Source: a virus. From it: a stretch of 64,000 nt of DNA. The stretch is taken from positions 32,001 through 96,000 of the IMG/VR virus record IMGVR_UViG_3300042398_001385. The stretch is one strand, 5' to 3'. A program made the translations under genes and the position numbers. A model generated the notes under the pieces. The model was not told where the DNA came from, did no database searches, and was given only the letters and a program-made list of their open reading frames with translations. Shown piece by piece: positions 17,608 through 60,431 of the stretch. The stretch's first letter is position 1; each line of letters starts with the position of its first letter.

Positions 17608-19620
17608 TTATGCTGCACTAACCCCGTCGGCGTATGTCATTTTTCCTCCTGCTGCCTTAAGTACTTTTAATAGAGTAGATTTTAAGTTATCTCCTGTGTA
17701 TGTCTTGCCTTTAAATGTCATGCTCCTACCTCCTTTGTCCCATGTACCTCTTATTGCTGTAGCAATCTTTCCTGTATATGTTCCCGTGTTAAATTGCCCT
17801 TGGTCATCAAAGAATATGAACAATTTACTAAGATCAGTATCCCAGTCTAAACTTACATTAAGATATCCTTCAACCCACCATCTTTTTCCTTCAGCATCCC
17901 ATTTTAGATCTTTACCTAGCCATTCAGCAACCTTAGATATTTCTTTAGCTTGGTTCATTTTTCTTGCTTCTGCAAAATTTAATTTACATTCTATAAAATC
18001 AGATAAGTCTTTTTCTGCGCCCATCAAAGAAAATTTTATCGTCTTAGATGATTTTTTGTAAGTTCCTGGGTAGCTTTTAAATGATGTAAATTTACCAGGT
18101 AAGTAGTATTTATAATCAGTATTTCCTGCCCTGTATATAACTGCTGTTACATATCCTGCAGTTCCGTAGGATATTGTACTTTCTACATAATATCTTTTTT
18201 CCTTATCAGAATCTATAGTAGATTTGCTGTTATATTTTTTAAATTCTGTGAATAGATCCTCCATCTCCTGAATACTTAATTCTCTAGAATCTAATAATTC
18301 GCTATCATATTTAGAACCGTATTCTTTCCATGCTTTTCTTATATAGCTGTTATTATGATCTCCTTCTTTATCCAAATTGTTATTTTTTGCCCAATCTCCT
18401 TGATTTTTAATTACCCATTCTCTAAATTTATTTCCTTCAGTCTCATTTGCAAAAGGGGTTTTAGGTAGTTCATCCATTTTAAATTTTGGAGGAGCGGTAG
18501 AAGAAGATTTAGAGCCGGAAGATTTAGAACCAGAAGATGATCCAGATCCTCCTTTACTCATAGCAGCAATAGCAGCATCAACATCAAAATCGTCCGATTC
18601 ATTAACTCTGTTTCTCATAAAATCAGAGAAAGTTACTATCTTATAATTATTGTCTATAGAAATACTCTCTTTCAGACTTGTTAGAACCTCTACGAATGCT
18701 TTGGTTATATTACCTGTAGTATCTCCGGATAATGTTGTATATTTTTTAACCAATCCTGCTTTAACCCCCCTTATAACGTTTGCAGTATTTGCTCTTAAAG
18801 TAGGACCAGGATTACTAGGATTTTTATATACGATTTTCCAATCTGGCTGTTCCGCTAATTTTGTACTTTTATATTTATTATAAATTAGTAACTTAACTGC
18901 CTTTATTGTCTCTGCTTGTTTTCCAGTATAAGCAGCTTTTCTTTGTACAATTGTTTCTGCTACTTCTATTTTACCCGTTGATCCTGTACCTCCTGTACCT
19001 CCTGTACCTCCTGTAGATCCTTTTACATTTAATTTTGTTAAATATAATTTAGCCTCGTCAAATAGATCTTTAATTTCTTGTATTTTAGTTTCTAACTCTC
19101 TGTTTGATTGATCTACTGGTCTTTCTTCTATATCTTTGTTCTTGTCGTCTGACCATTTTTTAGAAAGTTCCTCGTACTCAGTAGCTATTTCTACGTATTG
19201 ATCTCTAAGTGTTCTTATTATAACATCATCCTTTCCTATTTCGAATTCACCGCCCTCTTTTTTAGCTTTGTCGTACGTACTAACTAAAAGATCTAGAACT
19301 CTATTTTTAAGAGAGTTCATAGAATCTAAATTTGTTTCGTAGTATTTATATCCAGCAGATCCACTTCTAGCAGTATTCATCATCGAGCTAACTTCTGCCA
19401 TTATCTGATCTCTTAATAGCTCAAGAGCATTTATGAAAGCATTCGTTTTAAATTTTCCGCTAGCATCTGAAAATTTATCCTCGTATTTTTTTTTCTTTCT
19501 GTTTACTCTATCAACCTTATCCCCGGATGCTGTTCTATCTTTACCTCTAGCCTCTTCTAGGGGAGATACAGATTTCATGTTTTCTAATAGGGAAGAAAAT
19601 TTATTGCTAAAATATTTCAT
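17608..19620 (-). CDS. large putative virion (internal head/ejection) protein
   Basis: 670 aa with LLE/LEE/LKE/VNE sites, internal KIVTFSDFM..VNES tag, a GSTGGTGGTG linker and coiled coils. Confidence 0.55.
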   Translation of the reverse strand: MKYFSNKFSSLLENMKSVSPLEEARGKDRTASGDKVDRVNRKKKKYEDKFSDASGKFKTNAFINALELLRDQIMAEVSSMMNTARSGSAGYKYYETNLDSMNSLKNRVLDLLVSTYDKAKKEGGEFEIGKDDVIIRTLRDQYVEIATEYEELSKKWSDDKNKDIEERPVDQSNRELETKIQEIKDLFDEAKLYLTKLNVKGSTGGTGGTGGTGSTGKIEVAETIVQRKAAYTGKQAETIKAVKLLIYNKYKSTKLAEQPDWKIVYKNPSNPGPTLRANTANVIRGVKAGLVKKYTTLSGDTTGNITKAFVEVLTSLKESISIDNNYKIVTFSDFMRNRVNESDDFDVDAAIAAMSKGGSGSSSGSKSSGSKSSSTAPPKFKMDELPKTPFANETEGNKFREWVIKNQGDWAKNNNLDKEGDHNNSYIRKAWKEYGSKYDSELLDSRELSIQEMEDLFTEFKKYNSKSTIDSDKEKRYYVESTISYGTAGYVTAVIYRAGNTDYKYYLPGKFTSFKSYPGTYKKSSKTIKFSLMGAEKDLSDFIECKLNFAEARKMNQAKEISKVAEWLGKDLKWDAEGKRWWVEGYLNVSLDWDTDLSKLFIFFDDQGQFNTGTYTGKIATAIRGTWDKGGRSMTFKGKTYTGDNLKSTLLKVLKAAGGKMTYADGVSAA

Positions 19621-22454: not shown

Positions 22455-22483
22455 AAAAAAGGGTCTCCGTTAAGAGACCCTTT
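22455..22483 (-). terminator. intrinsic terminator of the major capsid gene
   Basis: Minus strand AAAGGGTCTC-TTAACG-GAGACCC-TTTTTT. Confidence 0.85.
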
Positions 22484-22509
22484 CGAGTATGTATCTGTTA
22501 CAGTTACTA

Positions 22510-36340: not shown

Positions 36341-36369
36341 AAAAAAAGGATCCCTTTCGAGATCCTTTT
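36341..36369 (-). terminator. intrinsic terminator
   Basis: Minus strand GGATCTC-GAAA-GGGATCC-TTTTTTT (GNRA loop). Confidence 0.85.
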
Positions 36370-53437: not shown

Positions 53438-54033
53438 TAGACTTGTGAGTTTTTATTATATATCTCATTTAACTGGGTCCCTTCAATAGACCTAGTATTT
53501 AGATATACTATTCTAGTCCAATCTTCCAAAGGAATTTCCACTACATCACGAACTTTTTTTAAATCCCAAGCTCTATAAGCATGTTTATAAGGTATTCCTT
53601 TTAAAATTATATCCATAGTTTGGTAGTCAGTTTTAAGAGGAGCTTGTCCTCTTCCTTCCCCCATTTCTATTTTTTTTAAGTTTCCTTCTATCTGATCCTT
53701 GAATACGCTTTGTACTCTTTCAAAGAATGCTATTCTAAATATCGGTGAAATTAAAATTAGATCAAGACCTTTAAAAAGGTTCTTTTTTTCGTAATTATCG
53801 TATTCAGTAAAAAAAATAACTGGTCTTTTGTTTATAAAAGGTTTCCCTTTTTCTAATTGATCATTGTATTGAAAAGAATAAACTTTCCCAGATAAAAAAT
53901 TTAAAGGGCTAAATTCAGATTTTTTATTCACATAATTATTTGCCCAATACGTAAATGATTCTTCAGGTAATGAGGTTAGACCTGAGACTGAAAGTTTGTA
54001 ATCATTAAATTGTTGTTTAAAGGAAGAAATCAT
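53437..54033 (-). CDS. gp2: DNA end protector protein (gp2-like)
   Basis: GKVYSFQY...RPVIF...FKGLDL...IPLEDW; position next to gp4. Confidence 0.6.
   Translation of the reverse strand: MISSFKQQFNDYKLSVSGLTSLPEESFTYWANNYVNKKSEFSPLNFLSGKVYSFQYNDQLEKGKPFINKRPVIFFTEYDNYEKKNLFKGLDLILISPIFRIAFFERVQSVFKDQIEGNLKKIEMGEGRGQAPLKTDYQTMDIILKGIPYKHAYRAWDLKKVRDVVEIPLEDWTRIVYLNTRSIEGTQLNEIYNKNSQV
53457..53464 (-). promoter_or_regulatory. putative internal late promoter GATATATA (portal operon)
   Basis: Exact motif in the end of gp2, 19 nt upstream of portal ATG 53437. Confidence 0.65.
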
Positions 54034-54515
54034 CTCATTATAAAGCTTTCATTTATAGCACCGAATTTATATCCTCTAGATTCAGCAAATCTAGTTGCTG
54101 CTTCAAATTTAGCTCTATTGGTTATCCATATTTTAAGTTTCTCATTATAGGATCTTATCTTTTTTTCAGTTAAATTTCCTACAGGTTCTTTGGGCCTTTT
54201 ATTAAGTGCATATTGATCCTCGGGTTTTATTTCTATAAACCAATTTTCAAATACATCTCCCTTTTGTACTTGTATATAGTAATCTACAAAATACTTATGT
54301 TCCTTTTTGTCTATTGGAGACCAATATGGTATATCTGTTGGTTCTGAGCTCCATTTGGTTATATTGGGATTTATATCACAATATTGACAAAATTTTCTTT
54401 CCCATGAGCTTCGGTATATTATATTGTTAATATCCCCAATGTACTTTAATGGATTAACTGGATTATATTTTCCAGATTTCCACTTTCCATTGGGCTTTAA
54501 CTTTTTTATATCCAC
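54030..54515 (-). CDS. gp4: head completion nuclease (gp4-like, TnsA-like)
   Basis: NPLKYIGD, IYRSSWERKF..YCD.NP.I..WSSE, PY.SP.D...H.YFVD, EIKP and N.AKF.AA. Confidence 0.92.
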   Translation of the reverse strand: MDIKKLKPNGKWKSGKYNPVNPLKYIGDINNIIYRSSWERKFCQYCDINPNITKWSSEPTDIPYWSPIDKKEHKYFVDYYIQVQKGDVFENWFIEIKPEDQYALNKRPKEPVGNLTEKKIRSYNEKLKIWITNRAKFEAATRFAESRGYKFGAINESFIMR

Positions 54516-54517
54516 CT

Positions 54518-54874
54518 TTATACATTATAGTTGGAATTTTCCTCCCTTACTATTCTAGAAAAAGGAATAGTTTTCGGTGACTTAGGTGGATGAATTTTTT
54601 TCCATCCTTTTTTCATTCCGTTATGTGCTATTTGGGATATAAAGGCAAAAGGATTATCAGACTTTGCTGGATCGTATCTATTCCAATACTTAACTAGATC
54701 TTCAAGACCAGATGATATGCAATCTTCTTTGTCTTCGTTATCTCTATAAGAATGTGTCTTAGACATTCCGTTTACTATAAGAGTAAACATTTTAACGGTC
54801 TCATCAGTTAGTTGACCTTTTTCTTTACTTTCGAGGAGAGCTCTTTTTAGCTCTTTGTTTTTTACGTATATCAT
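54518..54874 (-). CDS. gp55: late-transcription sigma factor (gp55-like)
   Basis: YVKNKEL, DCISSG.E.LVKY..RYDP.KS.NPFAFISQIAHN. Confidence 0.85.
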   Translation of the reverse strand: MIYVKNKELKRALLESKEKGQLTDETVKMFTLIVNGMSKTHSYRDNEDKEDCISSGLEDLVKYWNRYDPAKSDNPFAFISQIAHNGMKKGWKKIHPPKSPKTIPFSRIVREENSNYNV

Positions 54875-55128
54875 TCTTCTTGCGGTGGAATATTATTTTG
54901 GAGCTTTTCTATTTGTTTTTCTAAATTAACCCTTAATTCTTCCAAATTTTTCCTCGAATTTCTAATTGTGTCTATACCTATCTTACCATTTTCTTCACTA
55001 GAAGTTTCTAATTCTTTTATTTTTTCTAGACAATTTTTCAAATCGTCTAAAACAAAATTGAGTCTGTTACCAATTCCCTCATCCGGGTCATTAGCAACAG
55101 ACTCATTTATTCCTTTTGTATTTACTTT
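54871..55128 (-). CDS. -1-frame coiled-coil extension of 55122-57458 (candidate frameshift product)
   Basis: 85 open codons (KVNTKGINESVANDPDEGIGNRLNFVLDDLKNCLEKIKELE...LEKQIEKLQNNIPPQEE*) with no ATG. Begins at the A-tract ending the upstream gene; its TGA overlaps the gp55 ATG. Confidence 0.7.
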   Translation of the reverse strand, partial: KVNTKGINESVANDPDEGIGNRLNFVLDDLKNCLEKIKELETSSEENGKIGIDTIRNSRKNLEELRVNLEKQIEKLQNNIPPQEE

Positions 55129-55134
55129 TTTTTT
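55059..55134 (-). other. candidate recoding signal: A9G slippery tract (A AAA AAG) plus a 16-bp downstream hairpin
   Basis: Minus strand ACA AAA AAA AAG TAA (55136-55122), then 19 nt, then stem TGAGTCTGTTGCTAAT / ATTGGTAACAGACTCA (55105-55059). Confidence 0.65.
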
Positions 55135-57458
55135 GTTTTTGGAGCGGAAGAAAAATTAGACACTTTGTCATTTTCAGCAAATCTTCTTCCATTTTTTTTG
55201 CTGTTTCCGTGTGCATCAGCAAAATTAAAATCGTCCTCGTCTTCCATGAATTTTTTAGACTTTTCGGATTTTCCTTTAGGAGCTTTCTCTATGTGAGAAT
55301 TTTTTTGATTCTCCTTAAGTGTAGCTAGATTCATGTTTTTAAGATCCTGTATAAATTTAGAAGATCCTTTAATAGAAGCGCTAGGAGCTTTAGCTAAATC
55401 TAGATTATCTAGAGTATCTATAAACTTTTTACCACTTCCGACTTTTCCTTTGGTAGGAAGATCTGCCATATTAGCAGATTTTGATTTAACACCTCTACCA
55501 GTTAAAGGTGCTGATTTACCGCTCTTTGGTAAACCTGCCATAGTTCCTTTTTCATTGTTTATAAACTTAGAAGAAGATCCTGTTTTTTTATCTGGTGCTT
55601 GAGCCATGTGTTTTTTAGAAAGATTCTCTATTCTAGAATCTTTGTGTGATCCTCCTCTGTTTCCTGGAGCATTAGCAAAATTCTGATTTGATTCATTAGC
55701 AAAATCTTCAGTATATTCGATATCTAACTGAGGTGCTTTAATATCATATCTGTCTATTTCGTCATCCAGATCTTCAACATCAGAGAAGAAGTATTCCCCT
55801 GTTTTACCCTCTTTAAAAAGAATAGTATAAGTTTTAGAGCTTCCGTCTACTCCAATAACTCTTCCTTTAACGCCATTTCTTTTTATTCTAACCTCAGTAT
55901 CAATAGGATATCCAAGGTCTTCATTCATTGAAGGAAGTTCTTTAGCTTTACTTTCAAATCTTGAAATCTCTAGGTTGATTTGATTCCATCTGTCTTTTAG
56001 GGATTCGATTTCATTTTCAATGCTTTCTTCTAAAGTTACAAGTTCATCAGATTTAGCGATAAGAGGATTTTCTTTTTTAGCAACATCCAATTTTCTTAGT
56101 TCGCCTTCTAATACATCGATATTTTTGATAATCTCTTTTTTATCATTCTTCATTATACTCAAGAATGCTTGTTCTCCTTCTAAAAATTCTGTAAGAGATT
56201 CAGTGATATCATATTTAATAAAGTCTTTAACTATATTAATAGCTTGAGTTGCATTAGCTTCGTATATTTTATTTAATCTCATAGCTGGATTAACTGTTTG
56301 TACATAAATACCAGCTTCTGTTTTAAATATATTAGCCTCTACGTTTTCAAAAACTCTAGATTTTATTTTTTTACCAAAATCAAGATCTATAATTTCCTCA
56401 GCATTACTAGCTACAAATACTGCTTTAGCTATTTTGTGGTTTGAACTTTCTAAAAGATTGTTTGTACTTACACTAACTGCAAGTGGAAGATCATCTTCGT
56501 TAATTCTTTTTCCGTCAAAATAAACCTCCTTAGATTCGTTTGTAAATACTATCTCTACCTTATTATTTCCAATATTTAATGATATCTTATTGTTATCTAT
56601 TTTAACGTCTCTATCGCTTATAATTTGAGCCTGATCAGCTAGTTCTTGTGGAACTTCATCCATGCTACATTCTTGAATAACTTGTGTGTTCTGATCTATC
56701 TTTAAAAATTTACCAGATGAGTAAAATACTGTCTCTTCATTTTCGTTTAAATAGATAGGTGAATAAAGATTGCTTATTTCACAAACGTTATTATCAAATC
56801 CAACATTGAATTTTCCTGTATTTTCATTTTCGTATATAGATAAGAAACTAACAAGATTTCTAACCATTGGATTAAATCCAAATCTTTTAAGACCATGCAC
56901 AAGAGATTCTGTTGATTTAGTTTCAGAAACTAACCATCCTTTCATTTGATCTGTAGCATCGGAAAATAAATCCCTTCCTGGACTATTTCTCATAGTTTCG
57001 TAAGTCTTAATAACCTCAATCTCTCTTTTTCTGTTTTCTAATATTCTATTTAAGTTCTCTAGAACTGGAGTTACTGCATTTTCCCAAGAAAACGATTTAA
57101 GATCGTTTATAAATCCTTCAATTACAAATGATTCAGATATTCCTTTCCCAACCAATATATGATCATATTTTTCTAACATAATCTTACCAGCTGGTATCTC
57201 ATTTAAAGTTGAATTTTTTAAAGCCGAAACTGTATTTATTAGACCAAAGCTAAAAGAAATACCTTTATTAGAAGGTCTAGATGAAGAACCATGTGATTGT
57301 GATTCCTTAAGCATTTGAGCAGTTGAGCCTCCAAGGAAAGTAGAAGCAACAGGTTTTTTTGTTGCTCCTAATCCAGCCCATTCTCTTAAAGAATCTGCAG
57401 CATTTTTAGAAGTCTCCATATTTAGTCTATTGATCTCTGGATTAATATTTTTTTCCAT
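55122..57458 (-). CDS. large putative prohead core/scaffold-like protein
   Basis: 778 aa with many (L/I)xE sites, coiled coil, an SH3-like segment and basic C-terminal AxAP..K...SKKF repeats; late-promoter motif upstream. Confidence 0.55.
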   Translation of the reverse strand: MEKNINPEINRLNMETSKNAADSLREWAGLGATKKPVASTFLGGSTAQMLKESQSHGSSSRPSNKGISFSFGLINTVSALKNSTLNEIPAGKIMLEKYDHILVGKGISESFVIEGFINDLKSFSWENAVTPVLENLNRILENRKREIEVIKTYETMRNSPGRDLFSDATDQMKGWLVSETKSTESLVHGLKRFGFNPMVRNLVSFLSIYENENTGKFNVGFDNNVCEISNLYSPIYLNENEETVFYSSGKFLKIDQNTQVIQECSMDEVPQELADQAQIISDRDVKIDNNKISLNIGNNKVEIVFTNESKEVYFDGKRINEDDLPLAVSVSTNNLLESSNHKIAKAVFVASNAEEIIDLDFGKKIKSRVFENVEANIFKTEAGIYVQTVNPAMRLNKIYEANATQAINIVKDFIKYDITESLTEFLEGEQAFLSIMKNDKKEIIKNIDVLEGELRKLDVAKKENPLIAKSDELVTLEESIENEIESLKDRWNQINLEISRFESKAKELPSMNEDLGYPIDTEVRIKRNGVKGRVIGVDGSSKTYTILFKEGKTGEYFFSDVEDLDDEIDRYDIKAPQLDIEYTEDFANESNQNFANAPGNRGGSHKDSRIENLSKKHMAQAPDKKTGSSSKFINNEKGTMAGLPKSGKSAPLTGRGVKSKSANMADLPTKGKVGSGKKFIDTLDNLDLAKAPSASIKGSSKFIQDLKNMNLATLKENQKNSHIEKAPKGKSEKSKKFMEDEDDFNFADAHGNSKKNGRRFAENDKVSNFSSAPKTKKK

Positions 57459-57477
57459 TTGTAATTCGCTTTTTTAG

Positions 57478-57485
57478 TATATATC
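57478..57485 (-). promoter_or_regulatory. putative late promoter GATATATA
   Basis: Exact motif 19 nt upstream of ATG 57458. Confidence 0.7.

Positions 57486-57545: not shown

Positions 57546-60431
<2,886 letters not shown>

Follow-up and report, generated by a model that had tools for sequence, protein, structure and literature searches.

A programmed recoding event is the likely source of an 84-codon extension to the 778-amino-acid (aa) protein encoded upstream of a gp55-like late sigma gene in the IMG/VR virus record IMGVR_UViG_3300042398_001385 (153 kb, 32.5% G+C). The stretch analysed, hereafter the window, comprises 64,000 nucleotides (nt), positions 32,001-96,000 of that record, and the features described lie on its minus strand (Table 1). 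On this reading, most products would stop at the TAA that closes the 778-aa open reading frame (ORF), and a minority would continue in the -1 frame to give an isoform of 862 aa. Short and long isoforms arising by a -1 shift at an A-run had been put forward in an original prediction made from the letters of the window, and the comparative evidence now backs them. As described there, the ORF ends ACA AAA AAA AAG TAA, a run of nine A's (A9) that contains the heptamer A AAA AAG. The -1 frame reads from a GTA codon through VNTKGINES...PPQEE to a TGA that overlaps the gp55 ATG as ATGA (54871-54874); it contains no ATG and is closed upstream by a TAA at 55156-55158.

The arrangement was followed through 88 related loci, obtained from two viral-contig scans and look-ups of database homologs, in which the upstream protein is 37-99% identical to the query. 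The pattern xxA AAA AAA AA[G/C/A] TA[A/G] was present in 71 loci, representing 46 distinct junction-to-gp55 sequences with freely varying flanks, and all 71 carry a -1 ORF of 79-86 codons that ends on the gp55 ATG or at most 18 nt from it. The 14-nt motif including the stop is CAAAAAAAAAGTAA in 40 of the 46 distinct junctions, ends in GTAG in two and in CTAA in two, and reads GAAAAAAAAAGTAA and CAAAAAAAAAATAA in one each. The run is A9 in 45 junctions and A10 in one, and the slippery heptamer, in the X_XXY_YYZ phase of the 0 frame, is A_AAA_AAG (43 junctions), A_AAA_AAC (two) or A_AAA_AAA (one). The 0-frame stop, either TAA or TAG, occupies the identical position in every recoding lineage. Moreover, in a tree of 43 distinct full-length proteins, 40 of which have the recoding site, the recoding lineages fall into two groups separated by about 1.3-1.8 changes per site. 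Conservation of the heptamer, covariation in the hairpin downstream (see below) and maintenance of the -1 ORF were all seen in relatives (46 distinct junctions; 41 hairpin sequences). Judged across these lineages, the recoding arrangement is neither chance nor a sequencing error.

The codon that precedes the three lysine codons (KKK) is always NNA (ACA in 31 junctions, TCA in 10, GCA in four and AGA in one); in this genome, only 33-42% of the codons used in those families end in A. In addition, A9 runs are depleted, with three in the window versus 12.3 expected. The 153-kb genome contains four, none longer than nine, and an ORF end combined with a long alternative frame is found at this one only. 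Because the wobble base before KKK is always A and A9 runs are depleted in the genome, the length of the run is evidently under selection. The two other A9 runs of the window, at 1956-1964 and 19486-19494 (minus), lie inside long ORFs of 431 and 670 aa; no long alternative frame follows 3' of either, and they are probably tolerated, slippage-prone lysine runs.

The extension is 38-95% identical across 35 aligned relatives. In the distal 57 codons, beyond the hairpin, pairwise differences were 0.34, 0.18 and 0.41 at codon positions 1, 2 and 3, and this position-2 conservation with synonymous variation gives the extension a clear coding signature in the alignment. The linker just after the slip site is variable and includes a 3-nt indel; among its 39 distinct versions, stops occur in none in the -1 frame and in 36 in the +1 frame; by chance, a given version would be open with a probability of 0.43. 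An AlphaFold2 model based on 35 sequences predicted residues 1-17 to be disordered and two helices at 18-46 and 51-76 (mean predicted local distance difference test score 79). Glu8 is invariant in the 35 sequences, and G19 and L22 are conserved. The invariant Glu belongs to an (I/L/V)-x-E motif with I, L or V at P3 (INES, IIES, ITES, LAES, ISEN, ILEN). The cleavage-type INES motif of the original prediction is thus present; it is possibly a site for a protease like the T4 prohead protease (gp21), for which so short a motif is weak evidence.

A profile of the extension was searched against 1.84 billion representative proteins. The search returned fragments of 45-74 aa, whose gene-caller starts fall at five different positions, and one spurious match to a 494-aa coiled-coil protein (E 1.5e-4, in eight stretches). 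Neither a standalone form of the domain with a consistent start nor a longer protein carrying it was found in this library. A separate comparison of the extension profile with longer proteins was likewise negative, which is weak evidence. Against Pfam and PDB, the extension gave weak matches of coiled-coil type only (best Pfam E 1.2e-4, for one member of the family; best PDB E 0.013). A predicted complex from the gp55 alignment with extension residues 14-84 scored 0.01, which counts neither for nor against an interaction.

Eight of the loci (L048, L049, L061-L065 and L085) have no A-run, and all eight also have no -1 ORF. In the tree, they correspond to one three-member clade, its near-copies and the partial L085. 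Their -1 frame closes after 2-24 codons and their gap before gp55 is shorter (196-207 nt). These gaps nevertheless align to the extension (z up to 6.8); the stretch that encodes ELETSS..GK is matched by blocks such as TTGGAAACTTCTA..GGTAA, with the remnants broken by stops and frame breaks. The tree is unrooted and by itself leaves gain versus loss of the extension unsettled; the persistence of decayed remnants in the A-run-less gaps decides the matter, showing the extension to be ancestral and to have been lost along with the slip site. This joint loss, as read from the alignments, is the strongest evidence that slip site and extension depend on each other. The extension profile gave no match on the A-run-less contigs L063 (119 kb) and L085, both of which are incomplete records. 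Members of this clade (L048, L062, L063 and L085) combine the pseudogenised remnant with a stronger, G+C-richer terminator and constitute a natural 'knock-out'.

Folding confirmed the hairpin that the original prediction had described, with a stem of 16 base pairs (bp), five of them G-C, starting 19 nt after the G of the heptamer. Its folding free energy is -29 kcal/mol (z = -6.9), and none of 200 shuffled sequences folds as well. Across 41 sequences, pairing was kept in 93% of alignment cells, versus 30-43% when the partner arm was slid. Compensatory changes were seen at 8 of the 16 pairs, and the observed covariation score was reached by 0 of 500 shuffles. A clade at 40% identity has a wholly different stem sequence in the same alignment columns. 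The hairpin core lies 19-25 nt downstream of the slip site across lineages, and every lineage has a T-rich tract after the stem despite different codons (CAATTTTGTTTT, CAGTTTTATTTT, CTCTTTTTTTGC, CTTTTATTTTTT). Furthermore, in the lineages that have lost recoding, this position is occupied by a textbook terminator such as ATCCGCTTC...GAAGCGGATTTGTCTTTT.

Judged by their sequence features, the hairpin and its T-tract therefore most likely act as an intrinsic terminator or attenuator at the end of the 778-aa gene, situated inside the linker-coding part of the extension. A terminator is preferred to a stimulator because of the distance of 19-25 nt, the constant T-tract and the persistence of the structure in non-recoding lineages, and the assignment draws on our own scan for hairpins followed by T-tracts as well as on the comparison between lineages. 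On this strand of the window, that scan yielded five sites, among which the present hairpin has the longest stem. The original prediction had cautioned that the hairpin is too far away for a standard stimulator, which acts at 5-9 nt, and in this it was right. A role of the hairpin in stimulating frameshifting is not supported, given the conserved T-tract and the occurrence of a classic terminator in lineages that have neither slip site nor ORF. Two of the other sites, at 36344-36369 and 22457-22484 (minus), are classic terminators with an A-tract, a G+C-containing stem and a T-tract; each is followed within about 20-40 nt by the motif GATATATA, forming putative terminator-promoter modules.

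Several observations weigh against the reading of a recoded, functional extension interrupted by a terminator. The extension is dispensable, in that at least one clade lives without it. Neither a canonical stimulator 5-9 nt downstream of the slip site nor, in the junction listing, a conserved upstream Shine-Dalgarno-like element was seen. Conservation near the 5' end of the extension is partly an RNA-structure constraint, and that near its 3' end may come partly from the gp55 initiation region. A simple terminator scan does not report the hairpin, because its loop exceeds the 3-8 nt limit of that scan. Finally, in the minimum-energy fold of many lineages, additional A-U pairs lengthen the stem so that its base lies about 11 nt downstream of the slip site; a weak stimulatory role of the hairpin is possible on such folding models.

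Two routes could lead to the long isoform. The host RNA polymerase might slip on the A9 template and add one A to the mRNA, or the ribosome might shift by -1 on A_AAA_AAG with the neighbouring stop codon positioned in or next to the A site; both would give the identical junction ...TKKK-VNTKGINES. The invariant run of at least nine A's, which includes a free wobble base, the occurrence of C or A instead of G, the genome-wide depletion of A9 and the missing stimulator at the canonical distance favour slippage by the polymerase. Slippage by the ribosome is favoured by the G that follows the run in 43 of 46 junctions, by the invariance of the adjacent stop codon, which polymerase slippage does not need, and by the phage encoding tRNA-Lys(UUU) and not tRNA-Lys(CUU). 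A_AAA_AAG is the most shift-prone heptamer in Escherichia coli (PMC5009743), and runs of nine A's or T's are efficient slippage sites in vivo that serve gene expression; in many bacteria, selection against such runs can be seen at a length of nine nucleotides (PMC5009743, PMC1088944). Baranov et al. took an overlapping-ORF organisation together with a run kept in non-identical homologs as the criterion for transcriptional slippage (PMC1088944), and the same run and ORF organisation are found in non-identical homologs here. The two routes are not separable from the sequence, and both may contribute. Either way, the long isoform would gain a flexible linker with the conserved (I/L/V)xE motif and a helical hairpin of about 60 residues which, by analogy with lambda G/GT and T7 10A/10B, is probably a docking or oligomerisation module present on only a fraction of the molecules.

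The gene that follows matches PHROG 234, 'late sigma transcription factor' (E 1.9e-16), and Pfam Sigma70_r2 (PF04542; 27 bits versus a cut-off of 24), the match spanning only profile positions 25-105 of 181. The encoded protein, far better conserved than any other product of the locus, is exactly 118 aa long in 46 distinct relatives (71-99% identity), versus 185 aa in T4. In the 46 junctions, the extension stop and gp55 start form ATGA in 27 and TAATG or TGATG in 13, are separated by 5-15 nt in five, and in one the start is misassigned. The last about 25 nt upstream of gp55, with the block CCAAAATAAT.TTCC, are conserved even where the region is non-coding, and the lineages without the extension ORF keep both this block and the same 118-aa gp55. 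It follows that gp55 can initiate without ribosomes arriving from the extension. Translational coupling of the extension to gp55 is possible, and gp55 does not depend on it.

The sequence GATATATA occurs 20 nt before the 778-aa ATG in this phage and 25-33 nt upstream of the homolog ATG in 38 of 39 readable distinct upstream regions, the exception (L027) being cut at its 5' end; this conservation extends to the clade at 40% identity. There are 17 copies in the window versus 9.7 expected, and the next one on the strand, at 53457-53464, precedes the portal gene. Copies in the window sit 20-33 nt before ATGs. We regard GATATATA as a candidate late-promoter core that differs from the T4 late promoter TATAAATA, which is not enriched in the window and does not occur near the 778-aa gene. 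In no relative was either motif found between the 778-aa stop and gp55, so that from GATATATA the genes for gp55, gp4 and gp2 would be reached only through the terminator. This position raises the idea of recoding-gated attenuation, which we consider unlikely on balance: a ribosome in the -1 frame, trailing the polymerase across the terminator, would permit read-through, while ribosomes that stop at the TAA would release about 16 nt upstream of the stem, which would then fold. If so, slippage at A9-G-TAA would set both the isoform ratio and transcription from GATATATA into gp55, gp4 and gp2.

The original prediction went further and held that, aided by the hairpin, only shifted ribosomes reach the gp55 start, so that slippage would throttle the late sigma factor in a feedback loop. 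The overlap or near abutment of extension stop and gp55 ATG in all 46 distinct junctions speaks for such a loop, as does the lack of GATATATA and TATAAATA in the intervening region, through which gp55 has to be reached from the late-type motif. However, lineages without slip site or extension keep a gp55 of identical length and its conserved upstream block, the hairpin, at a distance of 19-25 nt from the slip site, also occurs where there is no frameshifting, and gp55 is needed before late transcription in T4, which makes a late-only, frameshift-dependent supply implausible (PMC2988020). The claim that gp55 is reached by shifted ribosomes only is consequently not supported, and we give the feedback loop in its strict form little credence. 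Alternatively, the helical domain could be a separate protein of about 45-75 aa that starts at TTG 55041 or a different non-canonical codon, or that is made by ribosomes re-initiating past the TAA. Besides this TTG, three relatives have an ATG at +26, and gene callers predict fragments of 45-74 aa; yet no candidate start in the extension is conserved across relatives, and TTG 55041, which the original prediction had named as a possible independent start, is an ordinary Leu codon replaced by TTA or CTN in many of them. Moreover, the invariant E8 and the conserved G19 and L22 lie upstream of this TTG, the frame is open back through the slip site in every recoding lineage, and the loci that have lost the A-run have also lost the ORF, so a separate small protein is less probable again.

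The chance is slimmer still that the gap is untranslated, with its conservation reflecting only RNA or DNA signals (the terminator, the promoter of gp55 and its initiation region), in which case the open frame would be incidental. The hairpin part does lack a coding signature, codon positions 1 and 2 being equally variable there, conservation of the final 25 or so nt persists where they are non-coding, and one clade has no ORF. Against this stand the position-2 conservation and synonymous variation of the distal 57 codons, the opening of all 46 distinct versions for 79-86 codons in an AT-rich region, and the confident helical hairpin that AlphaFold2 gives from the alignment. Homopolymer runs are error-prone on some sequencing platforms, and a true A10 would turn the locus into a single 862-aa ORF; however, 46 distinct assemblies from many samples share the frame relation, no relative is fused in frame, and a protein of about 860 aa is found neither among the 120 listed homologs nor in the 1.84-billion-protein library. 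The probability of such an error is negligible. The lack of any homolog of about 860 aa among those listed and the inconsistent starts of the library fragments rule out, for practical purposes, both a sequencing error and a gene initiated on its own, and programmed recoding is retained as the preferred explanation.

The site resembles the -1 frameshifting of E. coli dnaX and of IS3/IS911-type elements in its heptamer, its phase, its two predicted products and a 0-frame stop near the shift site. Unlike dnaX and IS3, the site has no stimulator at 5-9 nt on its 3' side, and no Shine-Dalgarno-like element was seen to be conserved upstream of it; the shift would extend the protein by 84 aa, the run always has at least nine A's, and the G is replaceable by C or A. 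Nine A's, conserved overlapping ORFs and an under-represented run are also features of 9A/9T transcriptional slippage, as in Thermus thermophilus dnaX, IS elements and Shigella mxiE (PMC1088944, PMC5009743), whereas the invariant adjacent stop and strong preference for G go beyond the requirements of that process; the present case is known from DNA sequence alone. A minor, C-terminally extended isoform with an extra small domain, encoded in a morphogenesis cluster, has parallels in the lambda G/GT tail chaperone, T7 10A/10B and the major head protein of Lactobacillus phage A2. Here, in contrast, the gene belongs to a different, uncharacterised family in a T4-like myovirus, and its extension runs across a terminator up to the start codon of the late sigma gene. 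According to a report cited in PMC10885494, the tail chaperones of T4-like phages are made without frameshifting. The stem-loop and U-tract about 20 nt after the stop are like those of Rho-independent terminators and trp/pyrBI-type attenuators, and translation could in principle block their folding; they differ from these systems in that the terminator, whose activity is deduced from its sequence, lies inside a trans-frame coding region and that no alternative anti-terminator fold was identified.

Our literature search found general recoding work and no description of this case. The recoding event is new for the gene family and for the phage group (freshwater T4-like myoviruses, probably infecting Bacteroidota), in which none is annotated; gene callers leave the gap of about 250 nt empty or fill it with arbitrary fragments. 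The combination of an ideal ribosomal heptamer, an adjacent stop and an invariant nine-A run makes the site a clean natural case for distinguishing ribosomal from polymerase slippage. What sets it apart is that a covarying terminator lies within the trans-frame region, directly upstream of the late sigma gene, where a coupling of recoding and termination is directly testable. The case also teaches that proximity to a slip site is no sufficient ground for taking a hairpin to be a frameshift stimulator.

Table 1. Features of the recoding locus, in positions of the window.
Feature	Position	Strand	Basis
Collagen-repeat tail-fibre gene	57546-60431	minus	
GATATATA motif, candidate late-type promoter element of the unit	57478-57485	minus	motif conservation; putative function
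0-frame ORF, 778 aa, short isoform	55122-57458	minus	ORF and translation
Recoding site: A9 run 55126-55134 and G 55125, heptamer A_AAA_AAG 55125-55131	55125-55134	minus	sequence, conservation
0-frame stop TAA, directly 3' of the slip site	55122-55124	minus	
-1 frame extension, 84 codons and TGA (54871-54873), putative long isoform of 862 aa	54871-55125	minus	conservation, coding signature
I-N-E-S, (I/L/V)-x-E motif like T4 prohead-protease sites	55099-55110	minus	invariant Glu; putative cleavage
Conserved RNA hairpin, 16-bp stem, read as intrinsic-terminator stem	55059-55105	minus	folding, covariation
T-rich tract ATTTTGTTTTAG after the hairpin stem	55047-55058	minus	
gp55-like late sigma gene, 118 aa	54518-54874	minus	PHROG 234, Pfam Sigma70_r2
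gp4-like head-completion gene	54030-54515	minus	PHROG 218, E 2e-44

The 778-aa protein has no match to a Pfam or PHROG family, and the label 'core protein' given to it in the original prediction is thus unsupported. At E 0.001, 141 homologs were found; the best 120 of them are 508-785 aa long (full-length ones about 740-785 aa), and nearly all of these 120 end ..AP..KKK. The family is unannotated in every source consulted for homologs. In an AlphaFold2 model, the protein is helical in its N-terminal part and of beta structure in the middle; a coiled coil spans 423-503, a small beta domain of Tudor/SH3-like type lies at 522-563, and residues 570-778 form a disordered tail of Lys-rich repeats. 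The tail, residues ~570-778 (window 55122-55750), contains about five to six degenerate repeats of the form (N/D)L(A/S)xAP....K..KF(I/V)E(D/N), the last of which is truncated at the slip site (..SSAPKTKKK). A fold search of the model against PDB gave nothing at E <= 0.001, the resemblance to Tudor or NusG-KOW folds being limited to the small beta domain. Against a viral library, the fold matched uncharacterised myovirus proteins only, including those of Tenacibaculum phages. In the distant relative LR756500, a 617-aa homolog is followed by separate ORFs, and the junction is unlike the recoding site.

On the minus strand, the gene order is the collagen-repeat tail-fibre gene, the 778-aa ORF, a gap of 247 nt, the gp55-like, gp4-like and gp2-like genes and the gp20 portal gene. 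The nearest relatives of the portal protein are in huge phages, including the Lak phages of Prevotella. Since these Prevotella phages are among the portal relatives and Tenacibaculum phages are among the fold matches of the 778-aa protein, the host likely belongs to the Bacteroidota. In a phage collection, a DNA search matched a short stretch of gp4 only, and a protein search with the 778-aa sequence gave distant matches only, in huge phages such as the Lak phages. Outside the window (G000:C1 130531-139031), 26 tRNA genes form a cluster that includes tRNA-Lys(UUU), four tRNA-Met(CAT) and one tRNA-Ile(UAU); tRNA-Lys(CUU) is absent from these 26 genes. The gp4-like protein additionally matches the Pfam TnsA-like endonuclease N-terminal domain (E 4e-16).

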